DNA of 55,451 nucleotides, counting the filler, from Jimgerdemannia flammicorona (lineage: Eukaryota): assembly GCA_003990765.1 (NCBI GenBank). It is 3 parts of 3 records of this genome, joined end to end, with 100 filler letters (N's around TTAATTAATTAA, not from the genome) between each part and the next. Parts side by side here need not be neighbours in the genome. Positions count along the whole stretch, not along the records: positions 1 to 18,420 come from RBNJ01002215.1; 2 more parts are not named here. One strand, written 5' to 3'. The notes beneath the pieces are model-generated. The model saw only the letters and a list, made by a program, of their open reading frames with translations. It made no database searches and had not been told where the DNA came from. The first letter of the stretch is position 1; each line of letters opens with the position of its first letter. Positions 1 to 38,943 of the stretch are shown in pieces. A program made the position numbers and the translations under genes.

Positions 1-312
1 AAAAAAAAAAATAGCTAATTTAGTGACAATTTAGCAGCCAATTTTGTCTACATTACAGAGTAAGAAATATATATCTAATATAATATTTTAATATAAATAA
101 CATAATATTATTTAGTTTAATATAGATTAGATATATGTTATTTTATTTGATTATTTATTTATTTTATAATTATTAGACTATAAAGTCAATAATTAATTTC
201 TATTAGAAATTCAAATATATAATTAACTTTATTTTTATTTTGAAATTTTACATTTAAATATACTTGCAAAATAAACTAAAAGATTTATCCATTTAATTGG
301 TTTAGAAACAGT

Positions 313-877
313 TGTAGGAGGGATAGGCATAGAGCATGATGACGACATGAGAATTGGTGACGTCACTTTTTTTTTCTCAGTTCAAAACAAAGATTTTTCA
401 CTTGCAGCCGATTTCCCTGTTCGAGTCAGCACCGGGTTATAAAAGTTGTATCAGGCCCACAGTTTATGGAGCATGTTAAGACACCTCTGGTGGACGCATG
501 ATCGCCTGTGGCCACATTGCTGTGGGCGGTTACCTCGGGTATTGTCCTTGTGTGAGTCTCGAACCAATTGGGGTACGAACGTTGTAGGGGATAGACCCTT
601 ACACCTAGTACTTGTAGCTGGTGATTATCTCCATACAGATAAGTATTTCATATCAACGTGGTGAATATTGTATAATCTTCGAAATCCGAAACACCTACTA
701 ACTTTACTTTTGACCGGTTCCTTATGCCGGTCTTGGTTGCTGTAAACCAACTGATGAGCCCCTTAAGCAAGGGCGAAACCGGTCTATTAGGTCATCTCCA
801 TTCTGTAATGCTTATGTGTATTTTATGTATTTACTTATTTATAAACAATACAAATTTTAAACGGATATGTCCAAACA
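313..877 (+). mobile_element. Solo LTR (retrozyme-like) containing a hammerhead ribozyme
   Basis: Starts TGTAGGA and ends TCCAAACA (TG..CA, imperfect inverted termini). Flanked by an exact 5-bp duplication ACAGT (308-312 and 878-882). TATA-like TATAAAA near 438 and ATAAA near 841. CpG retained, unlike the AT-rich left flank. Confidence 0.72.
726..783 (+). ncRNA. Type III hammerhead ribozyme
   Basis: GCCGG-UC (726-732, GUC cleavage triplet); stem I UUGGUU/AACCAA (733-738/745-750); core CUGAUGA (751-757); stem II GCCC/GGGC (758-761/771-774); GAAA (775-778); stem III 3' strand CCGGU (779-783). Confidence 0.9.
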
Positions 878-1631
878 ACAGTGTTGTTTAAGCTTCAACA
901 ATGATCTTGCTGGTGATGGTCATATTAAACACTAGCCACCGTCATCGACCCTTGCTACTGACTGATGGACGAGGAGTCCATTTTGGTTGCATGCCTGAAG
1001 CTTACGATTGAGAGGTTGCTCAGGTCTGTGAAGGAGAAGAGTAAAGGAAGAAGCTGCGAGTCATGTAGGTTGCGGACCAGGAGAAAGTGGGGATGGTGGT
1101 GTGAATTTGTAACTCGCGTTTGTGGCTCACGTGAATACGAAACGGAGTATAACAGATTTGATACTCACCTCCTGATCTTCCCTCTTCCAATATCAGTATT
1201 TTCGCTGGTTGTCGGTTTTCTTCACACCACTGGAACAAAGTAAGGTGTGCAGCTTCTTGTTTCCAAAAGCCTTCATCAGATTTCAAGTAAGCTGCGAATG
1301 GCTTGCTCGGTTACTTGTATGTCAAGAGAAGTTCTGAGGCTTTTGCGCTAATGACCAGACGAAAGATATGGTTGTCGATTAGATAATGCGCTATGTCGAT
1401 GTAGGTGATGACCCGTTCTTGGTCTTGTCTGATACGCTGCTCTGCAGCTCAGGATTGCTATTTGTCACGAATTACTGTCGTTTCGCCTTCACACCAATTA
1501 AGGTATTATTGCGAGGAAAAATTGGTATGGGAGAGTCTTTGAATCCTATTTCCTTTCATTTAGCTTATATATCCTTCAATATATTATATATATGCTATTC
1601 CATTTTCATATTTGTCTGTTTTTATATCGGA

Positions 1632-3568
1632 TTACTGCACTATTTCCTCCTTATCCTCCACCGTATCCCAGAAAGTCAACCTCTGATCGTTAAGCTCATC
1701 GTCATCTGTCTCGTATCTCGTCACACCTCCTTCTTCAAACACCAACACCTTCCCTCCTTTGCCCGTAAACCTTTCCCACTTTACCGACGCTTCGCCCATG
1801 AGCGGCAGGCCGCTCGCCGCAAATGACATCCACGCCTCGACGATACGATCCGATGTCCTGCTCTCCGCCTCTGTCAGCTTCTCCCTCCGTTTAAACACGA
1901 ACGGCAGCTCGATCGCGTGATGGATACCGAGGTTGAGCCCGGAGGTTATCTCGAGCCCGGAGGTTACCTCGAGCAAGGAGTTGAAACGGTAGTAGTATAC
2001 CTTGCGACCAGTTGCCGCGAGCCGTCGCGCGGCATGCCGCACCGGGCCCGAATAGGCGCGGTCGCCATGGATGCGTGCAAGGGCGAGGATCTGGGTATCA
2101 TGGAAATCGGTGATCGGGTACAGCATCTCGAGCTTGCCTGCTATGGTCGGGAAGGCCTTCGCGAGGGTGTCGTGGTATGTCTCCGCGATCGGAATGCCAG
2201 TCACAAAGATCGTTCCCTCGTCTGTGTTGTTGCCGACGATGATCTCGAGCACGTTAGGGTCAACATCGCCCTCGTTCAGGAGCGTACGAATCTCCTTATG
2301 GATATTTACACCGTCTATGGTACCATGCCAGCGGATTTTGGGGTTGGAGTTCGATTCAATGCACGGGATGACCTCGATGAGCTTGTTGCTTGGGATACGA
2401 CGGAGCTGGGCCAGGCGGTTGGGTGGTTTGATACCAAGCTCGTCGCAGACGAGGTCGAAGGTGCGTTGTTGATCTGAAATCTTGGGAGTAGGTGTAGTGA
2501 GTTTGATGCCAGACTGGAGGATCGCGCGTTGGAAGAGGTTGCGTGAAATGAAGAGGTGAAGGAGGATCGAGAGAGAGCCGGCAGAATTGCCAAATGCTGT
2601 AATACGGGAGGCATCACCTCCAAAGAGGTGGATGTTTTCTTTCACCTAATGTCAGTAAAGCAAGTGTACGAGGAATTGCATTGATTAATTTTTGAGGAAT
2701 GTGGCTGCACAATACGTTCTCTGACTTACCCATTCAAACGCCAATTGCTGATCCAGGAATCCATAGTTTCCGGCGCTCAAATCTCCGGAATCTTCCGCGA
2801 GCTCATGGGACGCCAAAAATCCGAAAATATTAACACGGTAGTTGATCGTGACGAGAACGATGGGGTTGGAGTCGACTAAGTTTGATCCATCTGCAATTAT
2901 AGAATGCAATGAATATGAAGGCAAGAATTAGTGCGAGATAATATCAAACAATCGAGGCCACGACATTTCAATCAAACTATTTACCAAGAGCAGGTTTACA
3001 TCCGTTTCCATTCCTAAACCCTCCGCCAAAGACATAGACCATGACCGGCCAGCCTTCCTTGGGCAATGTCTGCATAGGTGGTGTCCAGACATTCAGGTTC
3101 AGGCAGTTGTCTTCATCGCCTACGGTCTCGGTATCAGCGAGGATAGCGTCGAGGCCATGGGATCCCTCGGGCTGTGGGCATTTGGGGCTAGACGTTGGAT
3201 GGACGATGTAGTTTTGAGTTAATTACGGATGTCGGAAGAAATCCATAGTCAACGACATTTCAAAGTTTGGATTATTTGTCAGTATACAAGTACCAGAATG
3301 GTTGTAATAATATATTCACCCAGGCTTTGTCGCATCCCTAACTTCCTCCCATTTTTGCTCCAACTTCTTGGGTGCTCTCCATCTGAGTTCTCCGATCGGA
3401 GCCTGTGGATATGTCAACGTTGGTCGGCCAGTTGATCACTTCACGACGAAAAGGAGTGTTACCATTACAACAAACCTGGGCATACGGGATATTGTAAAAT
3501 ACGCGATGTGTTGGGCGAACGGCACCACGGAGTGGGCCTAAGGGTAGAGTAATTTGAGCGTCAGACAT
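1632..3568 (-). CDS. Type-B carboxylesterase/lipase (COesterase family), multi-exon
   Basis: Spliced exons give IPYAQ-APIGELRWRAP, EDNCLNLNVWTP, VMVYVFGGGF, NYRVNIFGFL, GNYGFLDQQLAFEW, nucleophile GNSAG, NTDEG and GIHHAIEL (S-E-H triad). GT..AG introns (e.g. 3475-3403). No signal peptide evident. Confidence 0.93.
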
Positions 3569-4619: not shown

Positions 4620-7600
4620 TTAGACTCCTTTATTATCCTATTATATCTATCAAGATATATATATATAGTTCTCTAATCCACTACCCAATCTCTCTAAGAG
4701 AATCTCTCTCTATACTCTTATGATGAAAGACTACTTTACTATTAACTATCACAATTCTTCCTCCACTCTGCTTATACATAGATCTTCTCTATTAATTAAT
4801 AATGATAACTATATATTCTATAAACCTCACTCTCAGTTACCAATTTATCAGGACATTCTCCATTAATCTTTTTCATTTTGTTAAATACTCTCTCAAACTC
4901 AACTGCTATCTCTCCTCAAAAACAAATAATTAGTATCCAACCAATCTCACCCATATAGCCAAAATCCACCTAATGATAAGTTATTTATTACCAATCTCAC
5001 TTACCAATCTCTTCCTCAAATCCTCTCATTGGCTCCTCTCATTATCCCTTCTCATTCCTTCTCAATAAGTATCACCATACTACTCAGAACTTAGATAGTA
5101 TTTAGTATCATACCTTAGCACTCTAGGACTAGACTCTTATTTAGTCTCATCTTTTACCAATACCTACCACCTATTAGCTAATAGACCATATATTCTATTC
5201 TAGCTCTCTTTGATACTCTATACTATTACTAATATCAAAGTCAACTAGTAGAGCACTATCTAATAGGATATAATTCCAACTCTATATTACTGGGCCCCAT
5301 AGTATCTCTCTCTCAGCATCATATTAGTGAAGATCAATATAGTATACCCTGTCAACCACTCCTTATTAGAAGTTCTTATATTGTATACATCTACTATCTC
5401 TAAGCTCAACTAGAGATAGTAGATCTCCAGAAGAGTCTCTTAAAGAAAATCTCATCTCCTAAATCTTTTGTATCAGAAGAACTCATCCACTACCTCTCAG
5501 CTCCACAGCTCTCTTCAGCCACTATACTCTCAGATAATGAAGTCTCTTTGAGAAGTCCACCAGCCCAAGACTCCCTCTATTTACTAGTAATAATAGAATA
5601 TCCCAGCTAATCTAGTTCTACTGCCTAGCCCAAATCTAGTCCTTGGCTAGCTTTAATAATCTCTTTACTACCTAGGCTAGAAAGTTCAAATAATATACCA
5701 AATACTATAACTTCAGAAGTCAGTAGATATTCAGGATTGAAACATGATCTACCAAAGAGATATGATGGTCACTCCAGCTCTGCAGAGCCTTCTCTCAAAT
5801 AACCATCTGCTACTTTTACTAAGTTTTAAGCAAGACTGAGCTATAGACTGAAAGAAAAATGTTCAGATATTATACCATATCTCTAGTGGAGACAATTGTT
5901 CTAATGACATCCCCTTCTATTAGACTATTACTCAATACTATTATTTCATACTTATGCCAATTGAGTTTTGCCCCAGAGTGAGCCTCATATTACTCCACTA
6001 TCTTCTTAAGTACTCTTATATCTGCAATTGAACCAAGGCCAACTACTATGTCATCTGAAAAGACTTCCACCTTCCAGACAATTTCAAATACTGAAAGCTC
6101 TACTATCTTATAATGAATTCTATCTATCAATAGCTTCAAGGAGAGAGTATACAGTATAGAGGACAGTAGGTCACCCTGAGACATACCTCTATCCAGTGTA
6201 AATACTATATCCTGATATCTATTGTATATAAGTACTACTCTACTCTCTTTCAGCAGGCTGATTATTAATATACAAAACTGCTGAGGAACTTCAATTTAAT
6301 CTAGCACCTTTGCTAACCAGACTCTTCTGACATAATCATAGGTCTTTTTCTGATCCAGAAAGATCAACCTCCTATCTAGCCTACTAGCTCTGGCCCCTTC
6401 AATAATACTATAAACCTAAGCTATACTATCCTGAATAAACTAGCTCCCAACAAATCTCCATTACTCCTCACTTAGTCCTTATTGGGTTACCCTCTGCAGC
6501 TTTACCACAATAATCTTAATAACTATCTTTCTATCTATATCCAGAAGTATGATCAGTCACCAGTTCTTCCAATTCTCTCTGCTGCTCTTTTTCTTATATA
6601 ACAAAGCCACTAGTCTCAGATTCTGTCCTCTCACCCACTTCTCTGATAGTAGTATAGAGTCACAAAATTCTGTTATCTCCTCCAGCACTCTAGAAATACC
6701 CACTATCTTCTTCCAGAAGTTCTATGACAACCTATCCTCTCCTGGTACAGTACTCAGCTTTATCTAGCAAGAATCTGCTGAATCTCCTCTTTCTGAACTA
6801 GTAGTACCAAACTACCAAGCTTATCTACTTGTGGTGGATACCAATCCTCCAAAGTATGTTTAATAGCAGTAGTATCTACCTTACTCTTCTCCTCACTCCA
6901 CAACTATTTCATCTCTCCTTCAAAGAGCCTAAGATATTTTATATACTATATATCAGCAGGTCCTCAGAATCTAATACTTTCTTCTATCTTTACCTCATCC
7001 TCTATATTTGAAGAGATACTTTGAGGGCCTCTTCTCTTTCTCAAGCCCCTATCACTATAGTTGTATAGCCATGCCTTTCATAAGAGTCTCTTTCTCCTCT
7101 CTCAACATCTATTATAACTCTTTTACCTCCAGTTTTGCTTACATTAACCTCCAATTCTCTATCCCCTCTAAGTTCAGTAGATTAGTCCATTTTCTTTATA
7201 ACCATACCAACCTAGTAGAGGCCCAAGTTACTCTCTTTCTCTACTATCTTCCTGCAGTCTTATCAGTCTTGCTTCAGTATACTCTAGCTACCTCCTTCAG
7301 TCTCATCTATTAAATACCAACTGGAGTACCTTCTCAGACCTAACTATCTACTTTCTGCCTAATGGTCTCAGCCCAAATGTCTCACAACTTCTTATCAGCC
7401 AATAGAGAAGAATTGAGACACTAATGTCTAAACCTCTCTTTACTTTCTCTAAACTATCCATACCCCAATAAACTTCAATAATCTGACCATGGGTACTACT
7501 CAACCTCTAGAGACTTTCAGATTCCAGCATTCTACTATCAGTACTTAGTTAATTCTAGTCTCAAGACTATCTACTCAATGAGTATAGATTCTTCTACTTC

Positions 7601-8142
7601 TCTATATCACTTGACCAGCATCTACTAAGGATCTAAGATACTTCACCTCCTCCTAACTATCCAGTCTACTACTTCTGTCTTCTATATTCCTTTTCTGATC
7701 TATCCTATCTATCTGTACTATACAGATCATATTGAAGTCTCCTTTAAGTATATCCACTCCTGCCTCTCCAAGAACTCTACTATCTATCTGTCTACTCTAT
7801 TTACTCACTCCTAGCTACAGAGTAGTAGCAAGATCTAATCATAATTAGCTCTCATCCTAGCCAATGCCATTTACTCCAAACTAGTTAATCTTTCTAATTT
7901 CTGCTTCCATATATTTTATCTCTCTCTTTTTATACCAGTAGCCCAATCATGTTATTTCAAACTACTGCTCCTTTCCATTCTCTTGTCTACTCCTATTGAT
8001 CAAGATCATCCTTATAATATACATTCTGCAGAAGAAAGAGATCAGCTTCTAATCTCTTTAACCAAGTAAAAATGTTATACCATCTCCCAGAACTCTATAA
8101 GCCATTCACATTCAATAAAAAAATATTAGTTGTACTATTCAT
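4620..8142 (-). pseudogene. LINE ORF2 (APE endonuclease plus reverse transcriptase), many stops
   Basis: ATG at 8142, then LNVNGL, GDFN (~7740), FLDQKKTYD (~6350), QGDLLS (~6170) and FSDDIVV (~6050). The 3' boundary is approximate. Confidence 0.85.
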
Positions 8143-8178: not shown

Positions 8179-8581
8179 TGTAATGGTTCTAGTTTCTAAA
8201 TGAGGAAGTGACTAATTCTAGTGGTCCTAAGTAGCTCAAAGAGATACTAAGGATTCAAGTGTTCTTGAAAGATTTTTGAGAGAAAATATTCTGAGACTTT
8301 ATTCATGAGAACAAAGAGAATATTTATACAAGATCTGAAAGAAGGATCTGGAAGAATCTGAGAAATCAAAGGAAAATGCCAAGAGAAAAGTTCTCGGCAA
8401 AGATGACAAATGATGATAAATAAAGTTTTACAAGTTTCCAGGATATTCAGTGACTAACTAAATAAGTACTAGTTAATGCTCAGTGCCAAGAAAGGATTTC
8501 AAAGTATTCAGAAAGTATCAGAAGGTTGTAGAATATTAAAGAAAGATAAAGAAAAGAAATAAACTATGCTAAAATATTACA
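8179..8581 (-). repeat. 3' LTR of chromovirus
   Basis: TGTAAT...ATTACA; roughly 94% identical by eye to 13798-14200. Confidence 0.95.
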
Positions 8582-8904
8582 TCTCCCCCTTCTTAAGAAT
8601 CAACATCCTCATTGAATTCTCAAAGTTATATATGATAAACAATAAGACTAAAAGAAACTTCAAATTAAATATATCAACTCATTGGTAAGGATTGGTCATC
8701 CTTATATAAGGTGAGGGCCAAAGTATCATCTTGATCAGATGAGAACTAGTTTGAACCTCATTGGTTGCAGGATTTATAGAGTTCTTCTGTATCTCTTACT
8801 TCTGATGCTATATTCCTTAGAGAGCCTTGATGCATAATGTACCTGATCAGTACAGTAGGTCATCTACTATCTAAGAGAAGAACCTCATGGGCAGTCAATG
8901 AGTT

Positions 8905-11900
8905 CCTTTTTGTTCGAACTCTTGGATGAGATCTTGGGAGTTCTTGAGATTGGTGGCAGGTTCTCAGGTGGCATCATATTCAGGGTAATCCATCCACTTG
9001 ACTAGGTATTCTGTGCGACAGTATCAGACTCATTTGTCTAAGATTTTCTCAACTTTATACTTGATATGGTCTTTAACTATAACTGGTACTGATGGTGTCA
9101 GAATTCGGCCAGGGTATGGGGGTGACTGGTTCCAGGCCTTGAGTTGTGACACATAGAATACTGGGTGTATATGTATGGTTGTTGGCAAGTTGAGATGGTA
9201 AGACTAGGTAGAGACTTGCTCAGTAATCTCAAAGGGTCCAAGGTACTTGGACTGGAATTTGGCTGACTGGTGGTTGACTTGAGATTGAGCCTTGATGTTG
9301 TCAGCTTTGAGTAAAATCATATCACCAATGTTGTATATGACATCTCGCCACTTCTTATCTGTATACTTAGCTTGATGTTGCTGAGCCTTTTGCAGATTCA
9401 TAGTGGTGATCTTGAGAAGGGAATCCATTTTATCAATAAGATTCTGGGCTGTGGGGACTTGAGTGTAACTGGATTGCTAGAATTGGACTAGACTTGTAGA
9501 GGTCTCAGGTTTTTGACTGTAAAGTAGCTGAAATGGGGAAAGACCAGTTGATAATTGGTTGGCATTATTGTAGATAAACTTAGCATAGGTCAGATAGTAG
9601 TCCCAATCATCTTGCTCATAAGACACATAGTTTCTGAGCATTTGTTCAAGTGTTCTGTTCATTTGCTCTATCTGTCTATTAGTTTGAGGATGAAAGGCAG
9701 TGGACATAGCAATTTGGGTTCCAAGGGTCTTGAAGAGTACTTGCCAGAAGTGACTTGTAAACTTGGGGTCGTGGTCACTGATAATTACTCAAGGAAGTCC
9801 ATAATGGCAGAAGACAGTCTTGAAGAAGATTCTTGCAATTTCTGGAGCAGTGGCATTGGTTGTAGTTGACTTGGCAATTGTAATCTTGGTGAGATAGTCC
9901 ACAAATACAATAATGGCATCATAGCCTGTTTTGGTTCATGGGAGTTGTACAATGAAGTCCATTGTGACTTGTTCGAACTTCTTGGTCAGAATTGACAAGA
10001 GTTGTAGAAGACTGGCAGATACTTGGTTGCTTGACTTATTTTTGGCAAAGATTACAGCTTTGGACATACTCCTTGATTTTCTTAAGCATGTTTGGCCAGT
10101 AGTAGTCTCATTGGATATTCTTGATGGTCTTCTCAGTTCCAAGGTGGCCAGCTAGTAGGGAGTCATGGTGTTTATGAAGAATCTTATACCGTAGTTTAGA
10201 GTTAGTAGGAATATATACTTTGTCTTAATAGTACACGAGATTGTCCTTGATGGTATACTTTTCCTTAAATTTCTTAGTGTTCCTTTGTAGAACCAGAGAG
10301 TCTTGTTTGTATGCCTTCTTGATCTGGTTGAGGAATTCAGATGCCATGGTGACTTGTAAAATTGCGACAAGGTCAGGTCTCCTTGAAAGTATATCTGGTA
10401 TAACTAGAGTTTTGCCAGGCTTATAGATGATATTTGGGGTAAAAGTCTGAAGTAGTTGGCTCCACTTGGCTTGTTGGTGAGAAAGGGTTGATTGAGTGTT
10501 GATGTACTGAAGGGACCTGTGATTGGTGATCATGTTGAACTCAACTCCTTCTAGATAGTGTCACCAGGTCTTGAGGGCATATATGATTGCCAGGAGTTCC
10601 TTTTCGTGAGTAGCCAGCTTTTGTTCTGCTGGGGACAATTTTCTTGACTCAAAGGCAATAGGTCAGTGTCCTTGACCATCATCTTGCAAAATGACTATAC
10701 CAATAGTAAAGTTAGATGTATCTGTAGTGACTGTGAACTTCAAGTTTAGGTCTATGTTTCAGGACAGGTGCATGGGTCAGGTAGTTCTTGAGTTCTTGAA
10801 AGGCTTATTGACAGAAGGCATCCCAGATGTAGGGGACATAGAGGTTAGAGTTGGGTTCCTTTTGCAGGAGATTTGTCAAATATTCTGTGATGCCAGAGAA
10901 GTTCTTGACAAATTGATGGTAGTATCCAGCCAGACCAAGGAAGGACCTGAGTTCAGTGAGGTTTGCTGATACAGGCCACTGTTCAATGACTTGTATTTTC
11001 CTTGGGTCTACTTGAATTACTTTGGCTGATACAATGTGTCCAAGGTATTTGACTTGATCCTTGAAAAATTTATATTTCTTGAGCTTTGCATAGAGCTTAT
11101 TCTCATGGAGGATCTTGAGGACTTGTTCAATGTGCTTGAGGTATTCTTCTTCAATACTACTGAAGATCAGGATGTCATCAATATATACAAGCATGAAGAT
11201 ATACAGCTGATCCTTGAAGACAGTTTGCATGAGATCTTGAAAGATTGCTGGCGCATTGGTGAGACCAAAGGCTATGACTAGAAATTCATAGAGTCCAAAG
11301 GGTGTCATGAAGGCAGTCTTGGGTATGTCTTCTGGCTTGATTCGAATTTGGTGATACCCAGAGGTGAGATCAATCTTGGTGAAGTACTTGGCATTCTTGA
11401 GAGCATCAAAGATTTGATCTATGAGTAGTAGTGGATAATGGTTCTTGACTGTGATCTTGTTGAGTGCACAGTAGTCTATATACATTCGCAGAGTATCATC
11501 CTTTTTCATGACAAATAGGACTGGGGAGCCAAAGGGTAACTTGCTTGGTTGAATGGCTCTTTGCTCAATGAGTTCATTGAGTTCCTTCTTGACTGCTTCA
11601 ATTTTGAGTAGAGATATATAGTACATTTTCTTCTTAGGTATAGCTTTATCAGATATCAACTTGATTTTGTGGTCATGGTCTCTTGAAGGTGGTAGACCAG
11701 GTAGTTTTTCCAAGAAGACATTCTTGTACTTGTTCAGCAGTAACTTGATACTTTCACTAATCAATAGCTTCTTGTCTTCTTTCTTTGGTTAGATCAGTGC
11801 TATAAAGGCATAGATAGCTTTCTTGAGGGCCTTCTTGAACTGAATTGCTGAAAGGGTAGCGATTGGGGTTCTTGTCTGAGTCTTGTCTGGCTTGATGGTA

Positions 11901-13729
11901 ATGTTAACTCCATCTTGAATCAAGGTGACTTCATTCTTGGTCCAATCAATCTGAGAGTTGTGTTATGTAAGCCAGGGTTTACCTAGGATCAGGTCATGGT
12001 CTCCTAGTGGTGCTACCTTGAAATCTAAACGTTCCCAATACTTCTGGATCTTGAGGGGAAGTTTAGCAGCAATTGAGTCAATTAGTAAGGTGGTGCCATC
12101 TGCAGTGACAACTCCACCATTCTTGCTGGCTAGTTTGGTGAGAATCTTGAGCTTATTGATGAGGTTCTTGTTGATGAAGTTCCCAACAGTTCCACTGTCT
12201 ATGAGAACATCTAGCTCTTGTCCCTTGACTAGACCTTTGAAGATGAGCATTGAATTGGCTCGGTTCTCAGCTATACTTACAACTTTGTCAGTGCTACCAA
12301 AGCCTTTCTGATCTCACTTGGTAGAAGACAGCTTGGTGACTTCTTTGATGACTGGTAGAGTGGCTCACTCTAGAATGAGCTGTGCAATTCTGTTACCTTC
12401 ATTGATGGTATATGGTTGGTTCTTGTGGTTGACTAGCAGAACTTGCATTTCACCTTAAAAGTCAGGGTCAATGACTCCAGCACTAACATCCAATGAGTAC
12501 TTGAAGCTGAGGCCAGATCTTGGTGCAATTCTTGCATAATGTTCCTTGGGGATTTCGACTGAAAGGCCAGTTGGAATGAGCCTTCTCTCATGTACCAGAA
12601 TAGTGACTTATTGTACTGCTTGAAGGTCCAAACCAATGGCTCCTTCTGACTGTACTTGAGGGATCTGGGCCTTGGGGTTGACTCGCACAACTTCTTGTTC
12701 AACTGGTTGACCTTGAGTATCTTTGGACAGGACCAGGATCCTCTTTGGTTCAGCAGTTTTCTTGAGACATTTGGTTGCAATGTGATCAGGCTAATGACAA
12801 AAGAAGCAGGCTCCAGCCTTCTTGAGGCACTCCTTTTTCTTAGGTATAAGTTTGCCTTTCTTGCTCTTGTTGATGGTGTCTAGGTCCATGGGGGCAGGTC
12901 CAACAGTTCTGACTTTGGGTTCCTCCCTTCTGTAGTTGTTGTTGTTGTTGAAAGGCAGTCTCTTCTGTTTAAAGCAGTGACCATAGGTGATGACATTAAA
13001 CCTATCAGCAATTTTCATTGCTGTATCTAGGTTCTTGGGTTCTTCTAGTTCAATACAAACTCAGGTTTGACCTTTCAGGCCTTAGATATACTTGTCAACC
13101 TTCTCGTCTTCAGTAATATGTGGTAATTCTAGCAGAATTGATAGGAATTGTGCATTATATGCTTGCATAGACTTGAGTTATTTAACATTTGCCAGACAGT
13201 CTCGTGCGGCCTTAGTGCTGTTGACTGGTTTGAATTAGCCTTAAATAGTATCAGAGAATTCGCCCCAGGTCTTGATTCAGCCAGAGAATCTGATATTCTA
13301 AACATGATTTCGCCACCAGATTGCAGCATTCCCTCGGAGGAGTGTGGTAGCAAATTGGACTAGTGTTGTTTTTTCCAAATTGGTCAGTTCTCTATATTGC
13401 TTCAATTGGAAAAGCCAGGCATCAGTAGACAGTCCTCCTCTTTGACCATCAAAGGTATCGGGCTTCTGAGGCTTGATAGTGACTACTGTTGAATATATTG
13501 ATGTTGGTGGGAGTGCAGAGGTATGAGCAGGGGCCTTGCTTTCCTTTCTTTTTATGTGTTCTTGAAGTTGAGCAATCTGAGCTAATGTAGTCTGCAAAAG
13601 ACTCTCAATGGCCCCATTTGACTGAGTAGGGTTTTGCTGTTCCTCTTCTTCTTGCTGATTGTACTGATTGTATGAGGTATTGCCTGGACTATAGGTACTA
13701 TATGAAGGGTTCCACCTGTTGTCCTCCAT
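8905..13729 (-). pseudogene. gag-dUTPase-protease-RT-RNaseH-integrase-chromodomain polyprotein, with stops
   Basis: Gag KPQKPDTFDG..WLFQL and PAPMDLD; CCHC CFFCH*PDHIATKC; dUTPase GLDL/RSGLS/GVIDPDF/RIAQLI/KGFGST (12.3-12.7 kb); protease LIDSG; RT YIDD; RNaseH TDTSN; integrase STAFHPQTN and YLGPF; chromodomain KVEKILD..EYLVKW..EP..NL (~8930-9065). Confidence 0.93.
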
Positions 13730-13797
13730 AGTGTTGTAACTGATATCTTGAGAGGTGTCTTGATAAAGCTAGATGTAACTTCACTGCTGCTACCAAG

Positions 13798-14200
13798 TGT
13801 AATGGTTCTAGTTTCTAAATAAAGAAGTGACTAATTCTAGTGGTCCTAAGTAGCTCAAAGAGATACTAAGGATTCAAGTATTCTCGAAAGATTTCTGAGA
13901 GAAAATATTCTGAGACTTTATTCATGAGAACAAAGGGGATATTTATACAAGATCTGAAAGAAGGATCCAGAAGGATCTGAGAAATCAAAGGAAAATGCCA
14001 AGAGGAAAGTTCTCGGCAAAGATGACAAATAATGACAAATAAAGTTCTACAAGTTTCCAGGATATTCAGTGACTAACTAAATAAGTACTAGTTAATGCTC
14101 AGTACTAAGAAAGGATTTCTAAGTATTCAGAAAGTACCAGAAGGTTGTAGAATATTGAAGAAAGACAAAGAAAAGAAATAAACTATGTTAAAATGTTATA
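13798..14200 (-). repeat. 5' LTR of chromovirus
   Basis: Direct repeat of 8179-8581; terminal CA mutated to TA. Confidence 0.95.
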
Positions 14201-16477
14201 TCATAGCTCTATACTTATCTTCTCTCTAGCTAAGTTCAATCTATATTCTGCAACAGCCTCCTCTCTCTTGACCTACTTAGCCTCCAGTCCAACTAAAAGC
14301 TTGGTTATTGCTATATTATTCTTCTCCTCCATCTCCTCCCAGTACTTCAAGTAAGTCTCTTGTCAGATTTCCAGTCTATGTCTCTGTTCTCACTAGAAGA
14401 CTATATACTCTCTAGTAGTTATAGCTAACTCTGTCTCTCTTGCTTCATCTACTATATATCCTTCCTTATCCAGAAATACTACTAGTACTTCAGTCTCCAG
14501 AGCCTCCACAATACCATCTCTCTGCAGTACTCTCACCCAGTGCTCCTCACTAATAATCTATAGATTTACATCTCCTAACTTCTCAGCTATCAAGTTGTTC
14601 ATCACCCAGTACATCTACTGCAGGTCATCAATTATCTTGCCCTCAGAGGTCACTGGTCTGCTGTCCTCTAGTATCATAGTATCAGCTCCAATACTTATAG
14701 ACTCATCCCACTTCTCTTCAGAGATATCTACCAGCTCATCTTCTCTAGCCTCAACTATCTACTCTCTTCTTGCTATCTTGGACACTTTAAATCAAACTTA
14801 GTAAGTGCCCAATATCTCTATATTCTCACTAACCTTTGGTTGTATAACTCTAGATCACCTACTTATATTCTCACTCTTCTTCTATACCCTCAGTAAGCCA
14901 TTATTATAGAGAGTCTGATCTCTCACCTCCTGGCTCTCTCTATAGACTTTACACCCCTCCCCATATTATTATCTGCCCAGACACTCTCCCAAGCACTTAC
15001 TGATATTCTATCAGTACTAGTAATGTCTTCTTTTTCTCCTTCATACTTACTAATAACTCCTTCTGCTACTTATATCTCTGAGCTCTCTCTCACTATCTCT
15101 TATTTATCTGAACACACTTCCCATCTACTACCTCTAAGTATATTGAGTCTATATATACCTGCCATGTTTTGGTCTATTGCTTTATTACTCTACTGAGCTT
15201 CTTCAGTACCTCTACCAGATTCTTCTTCTTCTCTATACTCTTCTTTACTCTTATTACCTTACAGATAAATGCACTTTACATCAATACTAAGGGTCAGTCT
15301 CACAGCTTCCCAGTAGCCTCCTTCTTAGCTAGCTGGAGATAGATATCTACATCCTCTATTCTGAACAAAGTCCCCTCTCAGACCTAGAAACCAATATCAA
15401 CCACTTTGCTATACTCAGTCATAATCTTCTTCACTCTTCTTCTTATCTCAACTATTATTATTATGGATACTTCTTTCACTAGTAGCTGGACCACTCTGGG
15501 GTCTCACTATAAACAGTAAGTTATTAGAACCACTACTACTCCCACAGTCAACTCAGTCTTCAATGTTTTCTCTAGAGGGGTAGCCTCCTCAAAGCCTATC
15601 TTGACTCTCTCTAGCCTCTTCAGAAACTTCACTGAGGCAGCTCTAGTTATCTGCTTCAAGATCATCCCCAGAACTATCTTTGCTATCACTATTAAGCTCT
15701 GAAAGTACAATGTAACTATAAACTCTGAGATTGACTTCTTGAGTAATAGTGCTACAGTCAGGCCTGTTATATCATCAGCCAGATCTCTCTACTTCTATTA
15801 GTCTCTCTGTATAGCCTTACTATCAGCCATCACATTTTTTTTTTTTTTTTTTTTTTTTCCAAATTCACTGTTATGCTATAATTAGCTATCATACTACTGC
15901 TCTCAGCTATATCCTCTTCTACCCCTACACTTGCTCCCCTGGATAAAGGACTCTCCTCCCTCTCTAAGTTAGCCTTGTTCTTTTCCTCAGCAATACTAGC
16001 CCAAGTATTTACCAATTATCTACTCTCCTTCACTTTTTCTGCAAAACTTAGGGGCCCAGAACTGCCTCTATTTTCACTATATACTAATCTCTCTCTAAAG
16101 CTTTCTCCACTATTGATACCTCCAAAAGGGCTCATCTCCAAGCCATAACTCCTCTCTATATACTATCAGCTAAATGCCCCAAGTCTACCTAATCTAGTAT
16201 ATCTATCAGAACTCTTGCTTGATGATATATTACTAGTATCTTTTCTTTGAAATATTTTGAAAAATATTATCTGATATTTATATAATGTAAATTATATTAG
16301 AGAAAGATATTCTGATTACTAGATCTGATATATATATAGATATACTCTTATAGATATTAGTCTTGATAATTCAGCTCTGATAAATAAAAAAATCTAGTTT
16401 ATATATTATTAGAATAAGAGTATATAATACTATCTTTATATAACTGAGACAGTAGAACTGTTAATTCTCTCTATAGC

Positions 16478-18270
16478 TGTAAGCACACAACCTCCAAGCT
16501 ACCGAAATTATACATCACCCTCTGAACAAGCCACTGAAATCACACACGACCTCCAAATAAATCTGGAAATTACCTGCTTGATCACGAAGCTGAGTCAAAC
16601 CGAAGTCACAGCATACAAAGCTGAGTCAATACGAAGTCACAGAACACAAGATCTACACAAATGGAACCTTACCAATCAGGACCAAATGCATATATACTGA
16701 GCACCGAGACGCGTTGAATCAGAGAACCAAAACAACAACAACCACAAACTTCCAAACACACAAACATGACCACTGAGATCTACAACTGCATCCGCGCTGA
16801 CATTTGAAATGCCATTGTCAACCGAGCCACACCCCCTCTGCCCCTCATGAATATCCATAGCCTGGCACCCCTCTACTTTGTGGAAGCCCAATGGAATGCC
16901 CTGAACATGCTTTGCGAGGCCTACCGAATCGGACAAATCTCAAGCTACTACCAGATCGGCCGCCTCCTGGAAGACATGGTCGAACACCACCATGATACAG
17001 ATATTACCCAGATGTCTCAACACCAGAAGCTCATCGCCCGCAAACATTGAGAACTCTTCTATGAGTACAACACCTTTATTCCCCGCCTCCAAGTTACTAC
17101 CAGCGAAATGGTTGTAACCCTGTCCTATGGCCAAATCGATGACATGATACAAGAAATCAACCACAAGTACCTCGAGTATGTCGAAACCACAGACAGAACC
17201 TTCCCGCACCCTGATGACCACATTCTGCAAATGCCTCAAGTTGGATACGCCATGAAGGACGTCTATGATATAATCCACTTCGATGAAGATGAAGCAGAAG
17301 ACAATGATCCCTCTGACACCGACATGACCTCTAGCCAAGGATCTCTGCCAACTCTGATCACTCCGCCAACCTTGCCGATGAACTTACAACAGTTCATAAC
17401 TGTATACGAGACTTATTGGGATAATGACCACTGGCACGAATACCAACCCGCATTTACCCCTGACTACTTCAACTACAATGAAGAGACCGGAGAACACAAC
17501 CTGTACCTCCAGACAACCCTTGAGACCGAACCAACAACCCCACCACCTGAATATGAGTGACATGAACCACAGCCGCCAGCTTACTACAACCCCGTAACTC
17601 ATAGTGCTGTAACCTATAGAAGGTACGCGGACAGCGAATCTGATGAAAGCGAAGACAATACACCCATCCTTCGCCCACCAACACCTTACCCAGCATATGA
17701 AACAGATGATGCTATTCTGTGGGACGGAGATGAAGTCCCAATGTATTACTACCTCAGCTAACAAGGAGAAGTAATCCGCGAACCACTCTTCCTAGATGAC
17801 TACTTCATCAGAGATGATGCAATCGATGGTGATGTCATCGAAGACTACCCAGATAGTACCTAAACCTATAAATAGTCTAGCAGTCATAGTATAGATAGAT
17901 TAGCCTTGTACATACGACGTGACTGTGAACTGACTCAGCAGTCAGATGATCTCTTGACATGTCAGATCACACTTGTACTACGTGACTACATTCCGACTCA
18001 GCAAAGTACTTAGTGCTACATCCATATCTAGCATAGTCCAGATAGCCCCTCACTAGTATAAATACCCCCTCCCTCAGACCTCAGAATCTCAGACTTGAAG
18101 ACTTGAAGACTCGAATAGACAAGAACATTCCTGAATACTTCCCCACAATACCCCTTCATACAAATACTTCTAGTATAGCAATATCATGAATAGCAAATAA
18201 ATCTATTCCATAACCCATAAACCACTCTTAAGTAAATCCGCTCCCTGTTAGGTCCTACTCCTAACCCTGT
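16478..18270 (+). mobile_element. Partial LTR-element-like segment: accessory ORF followed by an LTR-like tail
   Basis: CpG-retaining island within decayed DNA. Possible integrase C-terminal relic (EPYQSGPNAYIL, ~16665). Interrupted ORF ~16766-17863 with an acidic tail. The tail has GACTCAGCA repeats, TATAAATA (~18057) and AATAAA (~18196). Termini not resolved. Confidence 0.5.
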
Positions 18271-18420: not shown

Positions 18421-18520
18421 NNNNNNNNNNNNNNNNNNNNNNNNNNNNNNNNNNNNNNNNNNNNTTAATTAATTAANNNNNNNNNNNNNNNNNNNNNNNN
18501 NNNNNNNNNNNNNNNNNNNN
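18421..18520. other. Assembly spacer (N44-TTAATTAATTAA-N44)
   Basis: Exactly 100 bp with a six-frame stop linker in the middle. Confidence 0.97.
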
Positions 18521-20032: not shown

Positions 20033-21280
20033 TTACTCCTCTTCTCTCTTCTATTGCCAAAGATGTTCAATGAGGTCATTTTGAAGCTAGTAGTACATTG
20101 TAGAGGTTTGAATACTCTGATATTGATAGACAAACTTGTCAAATGCACAGTTTGCCTCATGAGAAGGAGGGTAAACTGAAAAGGATAAAGACAGGTCATA
20201 ATTGAAATCTAGTTTGTGAATTTCATATTCATCTTTATCAATCATATTGTTTAAAATAATATATATAGTCATAATGTCACTCAGATCCTCCTTTCACCAG
20301 AAATGAGCAGGACCAGAGACTATAACAAACCTGGCTTGTAGAATACCAAACACTCTCTCTATATCCTTCCTGACTACTTCTTGTATCATAGTGAAGTATT
20401 TCTTCTTCACTTCTTGGGGCTGTAAAATGGTCTGAACCAGTATTGCCCAAGAGGGATAAATGTTATCTGCGAGGAAATATTCCATTTGGTACTTGTGACT
20501 ATTGACTCTGAATATTATAGCAAGTATCTGACCATTCTGCAGCTCTGCAAAAAGTAGAGACCTATCCAGAATGTTGATATCATTATGGGATCCTGGTATC
20601 CCAAGATTATACAAGACAACAGCCTCAAGAATAATGATCAGACTTATTTCTTTACTAGTATACTAGTCCTGCCAGACCATTGGATAGTTTTTCTAATTCC
20701 AGTGCATGCAGTCAAGACTGTCCAATATACCAGAAAAGCCTCACTATTCACTGACTATCAGAAGTTATTCCATATCATCCTGGTTGAGGCTGTGCAGGTA
20801 CTCATTACCAAATACATAAATGACAGCTTGGCAGAAGTATTTCAGACTCTTGATGGCTGTAGTTTTAGTAATCTGTATATATTTGTCAATAGTATTAGCT
20901 GGTATTCCATATGCTAGCTGGCAGATAGCTGCAGTACATTTCTGAATAGATGAAAGTCCAAGATTTCCTAGGGCATTAGATTTCTGCTAAAAGTAGGCAT
21001 CATAAGTCTCTATGGCTTCCACAATGCAAAGGAAGAGCAAATGGTGCATTCTGAAGCATTGGTGGAAGACCTTTTTACTATAGACTGGCTCTGGAGCAAA
21101 GTAGTCCTTGATGATATACTCATGACCTTACTGGATATCTCAATCCACATTTGGAGCTCTGCCTGGACATAAGCACTAGTTTGGTCATTCTTCAAGCAAA
21201 TTTTCTGCTATAAGGAGAACAATAGCTTGCTAGGCTTCTCTATCATCAAATTCATCAAGAAAGTCAGAGTCAGAATCCAT
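20033..21280 (-). pseudogene. PIF/Harbinger transposase
   Basis: LDCMHWN*KN, GSHNDINILDRS, YFLADNIYPSWA, RKDIERVFGILQARF, IILNNMI and DLIEHLW, with several stops. Confidence 0.92.
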
Positions 21281-25641: not shown

Positions 25642-27339
25642 AGTTCAAAGTATGTCAGGAGTAGAGAAGATATAGATAATAAAGCCTCAATTAGAGAAAT
25701 TTTTTTTAAAATATCAAGAGCTTGTAAAACAATAGTAGGGACCTCCAGATACCATCAGGGCCATAAGTGTACCAATGATTAATATAACTTTAAATAGTAA
25801 TAACTTTATTTATAATTATCTAAATAAGACAAACTAATATATTTAGAAGTTCTAAACCTATTCTATTACTAGTTAAAAAATGACTTCAATAATATTTTTA
25901 TATAAGCTATAATTAATTTAAAAAGTAAAAATAATAAAATATTAGTATAGTATACAGTACTTATACTCAACCTTTTTGCTACTCCTTTTTAATATACTTA
26001 ATAAAACAAAAATAAAAATTATAAATTAATAGAACATCCTATCAAGTTTAATCTAATGAAGAGTTTTTTTTATTATTACATATAATATTTTAATAAAAGT
26101 AGTTTTTTTTCACTATTTTATAATAGATATTGTGACTTACTAAGACTAGTCATAATTTCAGCCTTAAATTTAAACACTTTACAAAGCCAAATTAAAAATA
26201 AAAAAATTTGAAGTTACAAAATAAAATTGAATCATAACTTATGCTCAAATTTTTGTCACTTCTTTTTGTTACTTTTTTTTTATATATTTAATAAAAAAAT
26301 AATAAAAATCATAAATTGATAAAAAATCCTATAAAGTATAAAACTATGAAAAGTATTTTTTTAATTACTATATATAATATATTAATAAAAATAGGTTTTT
26401 TACTTATATTTATATTTTTCTTATATTTTTTAAATTCTTTCTCCTCTACATTAGTCATATTAAAAAAATATATTATTAGAAATATAAATAGTAAATATTA
26501 TCTACTTTACTTCTATGAAGAGTTTTTTTTTTTAATTTTTTTCTAATTATAATAATATATAAATTTAAATTATATATAATTATGAGATATTGTAACTAAT
26601 AGACTAAGCACTTTTTTAAGGCCAAAATTGTGACCGGCCTTAATTTAAGGCCAAAATTATGCCAAATCTAAATAAAATAAACATTTTACATAAATATGGA
26701 TAACTTTATTAATATATCTCCAAATTTATTTATCTTTATTGTGCTAGATTTCTGTACTAAATGTGAATCCAACAAGCTAAAGTACATTCAAATTGAATGT
26801 ATATTAATAGAGTTATTAATGTTTTTGTGATCAGGTCTATAGATAGGTCTATTTTCTCAAGTTGGCTTTCATTTAAGGCCAAAATTGTGATCGGCCTTTT
26901 GCTGAGTTGAATTCATTCTTCCTAGTCACAATTTTGGCCTTAAACTAAGCACTTTTAAAAGCCAAATCTCAAATTTTTGAAATTATAACCTCAATCGGCT
27001 GAATTTTCTCTTTCACTAGGTTTCCTCTTTGCTATATTTATAAATCTTACTCTTTACTAAGTTCCTCTTTACTGACCTATAGAGATAGGCTTCTTTCAAT
27101 TTGGCTTTGAGAAAGTGTTAGTTTAAGGCCAAAATTGTAACTGATCTTTTACTAAGCTGAATTTATTTGGCTGGGCACAGATTTGGCTTTATAAAAAAGG
27201 CCAAAATTGTGACGGAGGGGAATGAATTCAGCTTAGTGAAAGGCTGGTCACAATTTCAGCCTTAAACTAAAGCCAAATAAAAAAAAAAGAAGTCAGTGAA
27301 AAATTGAATATATTTGATTAAAGTTATTTATACAATATA

Positions 27340-29440
27340 TCAGACAGCTAACTCATGCCTTGGCTAAATAATATTCTGAGAGATATGGCAATGTGAATGA
27401 TATTTTTTAACATCATTTTCTGCATCAGCTAATACAAGTCCTTTTTGATATGCATTTATATATTTTTGTTTATAATAAGATCAACAGAGGCCAAGACTTT
27501 TGGAATATTTTGCTTAAGTCCAGCCCATGTATAATTACAATTAGTTCTAAATATTATAATTAGATAATATAATAATTAGTATTATTATTATATAAATTAT
27601 AATATTATAATTAAATAATATATTATATATCTGCAATACTTTTTTGCACTACTCTAAAAATATTCAATATAATTGAGTTCACAATGGAACTTAGGATAAA
27701 AAATGCATTTATGACTCAAGTTTTCAATGACTTCTTGAAGTGGCTTCTGTGCTTTAAAATCTTCTTGAAGAGATAGAATTTGTACTGCATAATAATCTTC
27801 TATCTTGTATTTTTCTTTGCATTTTCTTTTTAAATCTTCTCTCCAAAGATTTCTTTCTTCAAGTACTTGTTATAAGCCCTTTGCTTTACCATGCAGTTTA
27901 ACAATTTTATATTTCTTTAGAAATATCATTTCTTGAGTAATATTGTTAAACTTTGTAGTTCTCATAAGTGGTTGTTTTCCAGCAAGTCCAAGATTCATCT
28001 TGTGAGCAAATAAAGCATCTGATGCATACATTGAATATCCTTGACTATGATCAAATGCAAATACTGCTATACAGTTGGGATGAATAGCATTGAAAATTGG
28101 AATAGTCTTTTTTTTAATCTAAAAATATAATATTAATTTATATTATAAGTATTTTTTATTAATCTATTTGCAAAATTTAATTATTATTATAAATATACAT
28201 ATCTGATCTATTAGATTATTTCCTGTTCAATAACCTTTCTTAGCCTTTCCAATTTCATATAGACAATAAGCTTCTTTTGGAGGCTTTGGCTTCTTCATAT
28301 CTTTATATTGTCTTTCAGATATAGCCAGTCTTCCAACAGTATCCAGAAGAAAGTCACTAACCATTATACTAGCACCTCTACTTTTTTTTCTTAGAGGAAA
28401 TTGTCCTTTTGGTCCCCATCCATAATTTAGATCATCATTTGCATTAAAAGTAGCCTCATCATATGTAACTAATATATGTTATTGTCTAAGAGGAATGTTG
28501 TGTTGTAATGGTTGAAAATTTTCATCATATTGAACTATAAATGGTTTCCAGTTAGCCATCTGCTTTAAAAATTGTTCACGGGATGCTTTGACATCATCTC
28601 TTTTATGACCATCAACATAGAGTCCTTTTCTGTGCCTACTATAAGTATAGTCCATCTTTAACATCCATCTTCTTACTGTATCTTCATGGATTTTTGTAGA
28701 TTCTGCTGATGTTGAAAAAATCTCTTTTTCTAAGAGATTTTAGAGTAGTAGTAAACTTATTTTTTTCTAAATAAGTTTTTACTACAAGTTTAATGTTTTT
28801 ATCATAAAGAAGACTTTTCTTCTTAGCATGTCTTTCTTGCTGAGAAATAGGAAGAATTCTATTATCAATCTAATCTTGTGTCCATCTTCTCAAAAGCTTT
28901 GCATAATATAAGCCTTTATTGATACTTTCTGCAATCAGATGACTAGCTTGAGAAGCACTTCTGTTATTGTTTCTAAATATCATATATTGTGATATATGGT
29001 GATATTTTAAAATATAATTTAGAGATAGATTCTCTAAATTCTTTATGTAAACTTTGAGTGCAAAAATATGAGGTTCCCAACTGCTGTCAGTCTTTTTATC
29101 TTCATTCTCATCATCATTCTCATCTTTATCTTCATCTTCATCTGTATTCTTATCTTCATCTATATCTTCATCTTTATCATCATTCTCATCATCTTCATCA
29201 TCATCATCATCTTCACCATCATCATCATCATCATCATCATCATTCTCATCTTCTTCTTCTCTTTCATCTTCATCATCATTATCATTCTCATCTTCTTCTT
29301 CTCTTTTATCTTCATCATCATCATTCTCATCTTCTTCTCTTTTATCATCTTTCTCCTCACTATCTTCTTCCTTTTCATCATCATCTTCTCTCTTATTATC
29401 ATCATCTATATTATTATTATTATTATTATTATAATTAATA
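27340..29440 (-). pseudogene. DDE transposase (DGHER / PKFHCELN family) with introns and an acidic N-terminal tract
   Basis: YYAKLLRRW, GLYVDGHKRDDV, TYDEATFNAND, MVSDFL, FAFDHSQG, MNLGLAGKQPLMR, DFKAQKPL and FYPKFHCELNYIEY. Probable AT-rich introns at ~28118-28200 and ~27545-27630. Boundaries approximate. Confidence 0.82.
29090..29435. repeat. (TCA/TCT)n trinucleotide microsatellite, encoding Asp/Glu runs on the minus strand
   Basis: Direct inspection; in frame with the downstream transposase sequence EDKKTDSSWEPH. Confidence 0.85.
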
Positions 29441-29614
29441 TATTAATAATATTAATAATATTTATATATATAATAATATTTACCTATAATCTCTTCTTTC
29501 AGTTTACTTTTTTGATATTTTAAACTTTGTAAGTACTGAGATCATTTAGATGGTCTTGGCATTTTGTTATAACTAAAAAATATAAATTTAATAATTTAGT
29601 AAGATCATCTAAAA

Positions 29615-36938: not shown

Positions 36939-37038
36939 NNNNNNNNNNNNNNNNNNNNNNNNNNNNNNNNNNNNNNNNNNNNTTAATTAATTAANNNNNN
37001 NNNNNNNNNNNNNNNNNNNNNNNNNNNNNNNNNNNNNN
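36939..37038. other. Assembly spacer (N44-TTAATTAATTAA-N44)
   Basis: Same 100-bp linker as at 18421. Confidence 0.97.
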
Positions 37039-38887: not shown

Positions 38888-38943
38888 ACTTGGTGCCCAT
38901 TGGCTGGTGATTCAAGACGAATCTCTCACTTTCAAGCTGAACA

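Follow-up and report, generated by a model that had tools for sequence, protein, structure and literature searches.

Does a 565-bp LTR-like insertion in the genome of Jimgerdemannia flammicorona contain a genuine self-cleaving ribozyme, and if so, what kind of element brought it there? The insertion lies within the window, by which we mean the whole stretch of 55,451 nucleotides that was analysed. A sequence-only reading had described it as the solo LTR of a candidate fungal retrozyme with a complete type III hammerhead ribozyme. Its host had been given as an early-diverging fungus, and this assignment held: because a 337-aa carboxylesterase exon of the window (1635-2645, minus strand) is 100% identical to a Jimgerdemannia flammicorona protein, we assign the host, on this sequence match, to J. 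flammicorona, a member of the Endogonales (Mucoromycota). Paralogues of the carboxylesterase at 83%, 75%, and 54% identity are found under the same species name. The window also contains two old Ty3/gypsy elements, one of them termed P1 here. The positions of all features are listed in Table 1.

Table 1. Features of the window, with positions counted along the whole stretch.
Feature	Position	Strand	Basis or remark
LTR-like insertion, putative solo LTR	313-877	+	565 bp; TGT...ACA ends
Left copy of putative 5-bp TSD, ACAGT	308-312	.	identical to 878-882
Right copy of putative 5-bp TSD, ACAGT	878-882	.	identical to 308-312
TATA-like box TATAAAAG	439-446	+	sequence reading; ~290 nt upstream of the ribozyme
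Module common to the many-copy family	596-783	+	hammerhead and roughly 100-190 nt upstream; depth, loose ends
Hammerhead ribozyme, type III	726-784	+	core letters, stems, fold, descriptor match, homology to L007 and L008
Helix III (open)	726-731 pairs with 778-783	+	6 bp, including A778-U731 and one G-U
GUC triplet	730-732	+	predicted cleavage site after C732
Helix I	733-738 pairs with 745-750	+	6 bp
Loop I	739-744	+	6 nt
CUGAUGA core	751-757	+	sequence reading
Stem II	758-774 (758-761 pairs with 771-774)	+	opens with G758-C774
GAAA core	775-778	+	sequence reading
Possible competing hairpin	712-718 pairs with 726-732	+	minimum-energy fold of 600-800
Stop-free frames of at least 70 aa in or overlapping 313-877	429-647 (-), 443-661 (+), 676-888 (+)		
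Ty3/gypsy element P1	LTRs 8179-8581 and 13798-14200		LTRs 94% alike
Second Ty3/gypsy element	LTRs 38422-38887 and 44663-45116		LTRs 91% alike; carries dUTPase

The complete core and the three pairing stems that had been reported for the motif can be read directly from the sequence. CUGAUGA, GAAA, the A15.1-U16.1 pair (778/731), and a residue other than G at the cleavage site (C732) are all present, and the layout is that of type III, with loops closing helices I and II and helix III left open. Stem II consists of four G-C pairs, one bulged C, two inner U-A pairs, and a 4-nt loop. The GUC triplet, and with it the cleavage predicted after position 732, was found where it had been placed. At minimum energy, 720-790 folds as a hammerhead, with an energy that is ordinary (z -1.16; 23 of 200 shuffles fold equally well). 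In the minimum-energy fold of the longer segment 600-800, a hairpin could sequester the 5' strand of helix III and compete with this helix. No degenerate second hammerhead adjoins 726-784. The window copy was also considered as a type I motif cut after C784, but the letters following 784 do not pair with 745-750, and this reading was rejected. We predict that the ribozyme at 726-784 is probably catalytically competent.

A motif of this kind may also arise as a chance match to the hammerhead consensus in sequence without function, and very many windows had been screened before this one was picked. In an Rfam scan of the whole window, nothing reached the gathering score. The search with the Hammerhead_3 model (RF00008), proposed along with the original description, did find the motif, but at 24.1 bits compared to a gathering score of 48.5; the E value was 0.005 within 301 nt and 0.94 window-wide, and the match was the sole row of the hammerhead clan among 11 rows. 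Against a chance origin, a descriptor demanding CUGANGA, a G-C-closed stem II, GAAA, a U-H site, and at least 4 bp in every stem matched exactly once in the window, at the 726-784 site, with no match on the minus strand. The same descriptor gave 0 matches in 300 dinucleotide shuffles of the window, searched on both strands (~33 Mb). A near-identical motif with a compensatory change occurs in two unrelated contigs, and the core is kept in dozens of variant contigs (both described below). The chance reading is close to refuted, and we consider it extremely improbable.

The two unrelated contigs were identified with a search pattern of 26 fixed motif letters and 9 free positions. The scan of metagenome contigs yielded L007 alone, a contig that the pattern matched twice at a distance of 530 nt; it consists of two 100% identical 530-nt tandem units followed by unrelated sequence. 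A single contig was likewise obtained from the genome_contigs collection, namely L008, which is 523 nt long with a 394-nt period and is filed under a bacterial isolate. In both contigs, 8 of the 9 free positions match the window, as do the letters after GAAA and ten letters past the cleavage site. By blastn against the window, L007 aligned over 42 nt at 95% and a further 16 nt at 100%, and L008 over 39 nt at 95%; no further likeness among the three sequences was found outside the hammerhead. Judged by these matches, the ribozymes of L007 and L008 are of the same lineage as that of the window. In the viral scans, the pattern with 9 free positions gave 0 loci. A version with 8 free positions gave 6 loci that look unrelated, differing on the stem I side and in the letters after GAAAC, and a looser scan returned 2 phage loci with a closed helix III, which are also unrelated to the window motif.

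L007 and L008 have the ribozyme parts in a permuted order. The palindrome ACCGGU forms helix III as a tiny hairpin, and the body of the unit closes helix I, which results in a type I topology; monomers folded from cleavage site to cleavage site close helix I in both contigs (z -1.6 and -2.1). The best Rfam match of L007 is HH9, at 23.6 bits versus 52. The G+C content is 57% in L007 and 63% in L008. Both contigs, the closest homologues retrieved, are tandem type I arrangements (2 x 530 nt and a 394-nt period, respectively) rather than parts of LTRs, and the window copy is type III and non-tandem. In its letters, the window copy looks like a unit of the L007/L008 type in which a 6-nt loop, with GCUG retained at its start, stands in place of the body, and the last six letters of such a unit precede the window motif.

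The comparison also provides a few cases of pairing maintained through change, resting on very few sequences, too few full ones for statistics. In stem I, the window and L007 share U-A at pair 1.2-2.2, for which L008 has C-G, a compensatory change; at pair 1.5-2.5, the U-A of the window corresponds to U-G in both L007 and L008. Among the variants listed for copies of the organism itself, 742 G>U falls into loop I, and with 746 A>G and 748 C>U, wobbles (U-G and G-U, respectively) take the place of Watson-Crick pairs. The sole variant listed within 749-781 is the core change 753 G>U, which occurs in at least one contig each of sequencing runs X4 and X10 (introduced below). The indels listed in the motif are an insertion behind 742 and a 4-nt deletion at 745. 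A tertiary contact between loops I and II had been proposed and receives some support: GCU of loop I (739-741) can pair with AGC of loop II (766-768), and a fourth loop-loop pair, 742/765, is G-C in L007 and L008 and G/A in the window copy. With U at 742, as listed for at least 5 X1 and at least 6 X4 contigs, 742/765 would become U-A, the linkage of the two positions being inferred from separate table rows.

The frame that surrounds the ribozyme was also as described, a 565-bp TG..CA element with an exact ACAGT duplication. It starts with TG at 313-314 and finishes with CA at 876-877, or TGT...ACA in the longer form. The GC content is 15% at 1-312, 47% at 313-584, 42% at 585-783, and 26% at 784-877. 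Ends and 5-bp TSD resemble the LTRs of the gypsy element P1, which has the ends TGTAAT..TTACA and the duplication TCACA/TCATA; the LTRs of both gypsy elements start with TGT and finish with ACA. Among 2000 shuffles of the two boundary zones, which were drawn generously, at least one TG..CA pair with a 5-bp TSD occurred in 28.5%, and in 3.25% if TGT..ACA was required. The locus thus has the termini and short duplication of an LTR at a chance of 0.03-0.29, and this frame is the weaker half of the observation. The TATA-like box TATAAAAG is a possible LTR promoter.

We searched the 55-kb window for further parts of the element. Using blastn, no second copy of 313-877 was obtained apart from the self match and AT-rich matches of up to 30 nt. 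Nor was a paired-LTR partner, an internal region, a PBS, or a PPT seen for this copy in the window; with one hammerhead in 55 kb, the copy is not a two-LTR retrozyme. None of the three stop-free frames matched pfam families at E<=0.001, and no protein relatives were found for the 71-aa frame that spans the ribozyme. A tRNA-like module as in Helenus is absent from 313-877, and TRF detected no tandem repeats at 200-1000. Sub-repeats of ~135 nt within 313-877, hinted at by a two-sequence alignment, were discarded, since TRF found none and pairwise scores of the four segments were at p 0.29-0.99 versus shuffles. The first ~16 letters of the insertion recur loosely at 582-598, at a level that is not significant. 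The ratio of observed to expected CpG in 313-877 is 0.81; the two gypsy elements have ratios of 0.12-0.36, and the gene next to the insertion has one of 1.08. The earlier statement that the CpGs are intact is borne out by this value, but the young age it was taken to suggest is one of three readings: the copy is either young, or spared the CpG depletion of the other repeats, or constrained.

Whether the insertion belongs to a repeated family was addressed using sequencing runs. The search returned 15 runs, two of them of the window's organism (X1 and X4) and the others soil metagenomes and root metatranscriptomes with small shares; X1 contains half of the searched words. Contigs of X1, X2, X4, and X10 were aligned to positions 1-1400 of the window at 80% likeness. 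X1 and X4 are only guessed to be RNA, X2 is a DNA-type soil run, and X10 is a root metatranscriptome. On window 1-1400 there were 82 contigs from X1 and 74 from X4, falling into identity classes of 35/19/16/12 and 20/19/22/13, respectively. Depth is given as the sum over all contigs, hence it is no measure of copy number, and the contigs show neither ends, strand, nor cleavage. In X1, the depth was 135 at 565-611, 1148 at 612-658, 2461 at 659-705, 6178 at 706-752, 11379 at 753-799, and 141 at 800-846. The same six bins (565-846) had depths of 2, 920, 1715, 3995, 10205, and 17 in X4. Relative to the bin just downstream as flank, the depth of the motif was higher by a factor of ~80 in X1 and ~600 in X4. 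High depth was confined to ~612-783 in both runs, with 424-611 and 800-893 at flank level and 1-423 uncovered.

The ends of the alignments delimit the same module. Just behind 781/783, loose contig ends were observed in at least 9 contigs of X1, at least 7 of X4, and at least 2 of X10, and the likeness of the family to the window copy stops at the last base of helix III (781-783). Among the rows listed, loose ends also occurred before 626, 637, 681, and 743; several of the loose-end consensuses before 626 and 637 are still window-like at lower identity. In the root metatranscriptome X10, two contigs covered 695-783 and 745-781. Because only ~612-783 stands at high depth, with the neighbouring segments at flank level, the 565-bp unit as an LTR of the whole family is not supported; only ~600-783 is seen to be multi-copy. 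Since two or three variants cover the segment 432-626 in X1, the copy number of the upstream part is low at most. In one X4 contig, which is diverged, a relative of 457-583 is connected to the ribozyme region. The right border 877/878 is crossed by record 7 of X1 and record 11 of X2, which share a 22-nt deletion at 835, indicating that the insertion occupies the same site in related strains. Among the aligned contigs of X1, X2, X4, and X10, no empty insertion site was seen.

The depth values further bear on the nature of the template. The ratios of motif to flank differ ~8-fold between X1 and X4, so equal DNA copy number would not fit, and the window's own version of 597-721 has a depth of 9-13 beside a flank contig of depth 156. 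Both observations favour RNA over DNA as the template of at least one run. Taken together, we are highly confident that the hammerhead is genuine and a member of a many-copy family seen in RNA libraries.

The high depth and the many variants in runs guessed to be RNA would also be expected if the contigs derived from a circular RNA, similar to those of viroids or ambiviruses, that replicates in the fungus, with the genomic copy as an endogenised cDNA fragment. In infectious circular RNAs, fungal ones among them, hammerheads are as a rule of type III, according to the available text of two reports (PMC13725137, PMC11721086). However, many of the 82 and 74 contigs diverge just outside the motif, which fits better with many loci. 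In addition, the relatives L007 and L008 stand in DNA assemblies, the DNA-type soil run X2 contains the locus (records 10 and 11), and the ribozyme occurs on one polarity only. We regard such a replicon as an improbable source.

A further possibility is a single-copy ribozyme that serves the host by processing the region downstream of the carboxylesterase transcript. The insertion lies 754 bp beyond the stop codon of this gene, one X1 contig spans 759 to roughly 2000 (~600 nt beyond 1400), and CpG is undepleted. The ribozyme, however, is located on the strand opposite to the gene, therefore the gene's own transcript would carry only the complement of the ribozyme, and the motif is many-copy. 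A role of this kind appears very improbable.

Two readings of the insertion as part of a mobile element have more weight. In the first, the window copy is the solo LTR of a non-autonomous, retrozyme-like LTR element. This reading may be said to rest on the ends, on a 5-bp TSD typical of fungal LTR elements, and on the precedent of plants; we consider it the best single reading, with chances about evenly balanced. The repeated family, its presence in RNA libraries, the LTR-like ends, and the gypsy elements in the window agree with what had originally been proposed, but the restriction of the multi-copy part to ~600-783 and the lack of a paired LTR in the window do not. The main rival is a non-LTR retrozyme-like or SINE-like repeat as in animals, with tandem or dispersed units moved by other retroelements. 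In that case, the module 596-783 would represent a fragment of such a repeat or its collapsed 'mini-unit', and the 313/877 frame would be coincidental or that of a capturing element. Several observations fit this alternative: the family shares only ~600-783, its likeness stops at the last paired base of the ribozyme, L007 and L008 are tandem repeats in which the unit body hangs on stem I, and the window motif can itself be read as such a unit with the 6-nt loop in place of the body, the GCUG start, and the six preceding unit letters. In addition, the test of the TSD is weak. On the other hand, there is no tandem copy in the window, loose ends before 743 suggest a short-loop stem I (type III) in several variant contigs, and the sequence that follows 783 in these contigs is not the start of a next unit. 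TGT..ACA and a 5-bp TSD also occur in genuine LTRs of the same genome. We hold the non-LTR repeat to be possible but rather unlikely.

Most likely, then, the insertion is a solo LTR or a remnant of a retrozyme-like retroelement, in which the family-conserved part is only the ribozyme and the 100-190 nt before it. Under this preferred reading, the transcript of the element would fold into a three-helix junction, aided by a kissing contact of loops I and II, and would cut itself after C732. A tRNA-type ligase could circularise the RNA, and the circular RNA might then be copied and integrated by the Ty3/gypsy machinery of the genome; the two window elements could supply reverse transcriptase and integrase. 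The motif with its homology, its copy number and pattern of variants, its occurrence in RNA libraries, and the LTR-like ends are observed; from these we infer cleavage, RNA circles, mobilisation in trans, and a two-LTR form of the element. Only tentatively do we suggest that J. flammicorona harbours an active retrozyme family (hammerhead-bounded, circle-forming, and non-autonomous) that would be the first fungal one of the LTR type and whose ribozyme lineage also occurs as type I in unrelated G+C-rich genomes. With one lineage in both topologies, the module would have switched its cargo between helix III and helix I, or changed hosts.

Plant LTR retrozymes are described as having a type III hammerhead in a 300-400-bp LTR-like repeat with a 4-bp TSD (Cervera, Urbina and de la Pena 2016, PMC4918200). 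According to the available text of the same paper, plant retrozymes occur most often as solo LTRs with a type III hammerhead, and the families are heterogeneous and non-coding, with only the ribozyme and small boxes conserved and Ty3/gypsy elements as presumed helpers (PMC4918200). The window element resembles the plant retrozymes as described there in its type III hammerhead within an LTR-like repeat with TSDs, in heterogeneous family members with the ribozyme as the best conserved part, and in the lack of coding capacity. It differs in being fungal and in having a 5-bp TSD and a 565-bp unit. In contrast to the plant families in that description, the window family has been seen as multi-copy only in the ribozyme-proximal part, and neither a two-LTR copy nor a PBS/PPT was seen.

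For metazoan non-LTR retrozymes, type I hammerheads in tandem repeats of 170-450 bp have been reported, the G+C content of the animal units being given as less than 45-50% (Cervera and de la Pena 2020, PMC7229834). L007 and L008 are similar to these in forming tandem units (530 and 394 nt) with a type I motif. Their very short, palindromic helix III is like that of amphibian motifs which, in the available text, are said to act as dimers (PMC7229834). Unlike the metazoan retrozymes of that account, the window copy is type III and single, and L007 and L008 are G+C-rich. In fungi, hammerheads on multi-copy interspersed repeats have been reported for Yarrowia lipolytica, in a paper that, in its available text, assigns the majority of the repeat-associated hammerheads of eukaryotes to type I (Perreault et al. 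2011, PMC3088659). The present case is comparable to that account in that hammerheads stand on multi-copy repeats of a fungal genome. Unlike the host of the window, Yarrowia is an ascomycete yeast, and LTR or retrozyme anatomy is absent from the available text; the comparison is one of descriptions, not of sequences.

A structural RNA module within an LTR has a parallel in the TRIMs Cassandra, Helenus, and Ajax, short non-autonomous elements with a small-RNA-derived module in the LTR (Kojima 2024, PMC10886601). Fungal TRIMs are described there with 5-bp TSDs, many solo LTRs, and TGT..ACA-like ends (PMC10886601). In this description the TRIM module is a tRNA- or 5S-like pol III promoter, and in the window element it is a ribozyme. 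As for the distribution of the two topologies, the available text of another paper gives type III as typical of infectious circular RNAs and DNA-encoded type I as found in bacteria, phages, and metazoans (PMC13725137). The window was also compared with a further group of elements, and no Penelope-like reverse transcriptase was detected in it. Penelope-like and Terminon elements have minimal type I hammerheads with a weak helix III in their terminal repeats. In contrast to those, the window motif is canonical, with long helices.

A full-text literature search for hammerheads or retrozymes in Jimgerdemannia, Mucoromycota, Rhizophagus, and mycorrhizal fungal genomes returned no paper. The notion that such an element had not been well described in early-diverging fungi agrees with this result, but it has to be narrowed in view of the Yarrowia lipolytica repeats reported in 2011 (PMC3088659). 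New here is a many-copy hammerhead of type III that is framed by LTR-like ends, occurs in an early-diverging fungus, and has permuted tandem relatives elsewhere. It is no new class, because fungal repeat-associated hammerheads are already published for Yarrowia lipolytica in the text available (PMC3088659).

Genome-encoded hammerheads that make circular RNAs have been described in plants, as type III LTR retrozymes, and in animals, as type I tandem repeats. For fungi, the literature searched holds, in the text available, the 2011 Yarrowia note and many RNA-only viroid-like agents and viruses. If our reading is true, retrozyme-like elements extend to a third kingdom. For 'viroid-like' circular RNAs mined from metatranscriptomes of soil and roots, which contain the motif, an origin from DNA would then have to be considered as well. 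Together with the window copy, L007 and L008 would be an example from nature of a single ribozyme lineage with two permuted topologies.

Both window Ty3/gypsy retrotransposons, which are degenerate, are strongly depleted in CpG (O/E 0.12–0.36), in contrast to the LTR-like hammerhead element (0.81) and the neighbouring esterase gene (1.08). Within the hammerhead element, the stretch at window 310–327, comprising the last letters of the target site duplication and the element's initial ~16 letters, is loosely repeated at 582–598. This likeness was not significant when compared with shuffled sequences. The inner copy could nevertheless represent an inner terminus, close to where the multi-copy part begins.

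Further repeats were observed elsewhere in the window. At 25945–31564, inverted repeats of ~1 kb that are 95–99% complementary surround 3.7–5.3 kb, possibly representing a foldback or large-TIR DNA transposon. Between these repeats, arrays of a 19-nt minisatellite occur on both strands (29581–30473); the microRNA-family matches obtained from Rfam in this region were produced by the arrays and were rejected as spurious. A transposase fragment of the PIF/Harbinger type was also identified. In addition, GC skew is strongly negative (-0.23 to -0.48) in the blocks at window 5001–8000 and 14001–18000, whose open frames had no match in Pfam. Runs of N, 44 nt each and arranged in pairs, occur at window 18421–18520 and 36939–37038 and were read as scaffold gaps or masked stretches.

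Features identified in the window and in contigs with a homologous hammerhead
Feature	Sequence	Position	Strand	Remarks
Ty3/gypsy LTR retrotransposon, degenerate	window	8179–14200		LTR pair 94% alike
Ty3/gypsy LTR retrotransposon, degenerate	window	38422–45116		LTR pair 91% alike; dUTPase domain
PIF/Harbinger-type transposase fragment	window	20297–20662	-	Plant_tran, E 1.4e-38
L007	VFQP010074536.1	1–1294		metagenome contig
L008	NZ_BBME01000008.1	1–523		recorded as Demequina isolate

Pattern scans yielded two contigs, L007 and L008, with a hammerhead homologous to that of the window. L007 consists of two 530-nt tandem units, 100% identical to each other; the 230 nt after them are unrelated and have a higher AT content. 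Each unit harbors a type I hammerhead, in which the palindrome ACCGGU forms helix III. In appearance, the contig looks like animal (tandem) retrozymes, but its G+C content is 57%. The Alu-domain end of Plant_SRP weakly matched each unit, at 468–644 and 998–1174 (minus strand), scoring 22.1 bits against a gathering threshold of 105 (E 0.0007 in 1.3 kb). The matching stretch contains two hairpins, each with UGUAAC after it; the match may be due to chance or may reflect an SRP-like module of the unit.

The same type I hammerhead occurs in L008, which comprises 1.3 copies (523 nt) of a 394-nt unit with 63% G+C; the 129-nt overlap between the copies has a single mismatch. L008 is unlikely to be part of a bacterial chromosome; it may stem from contamination or represent a small element of circular or tandem form.
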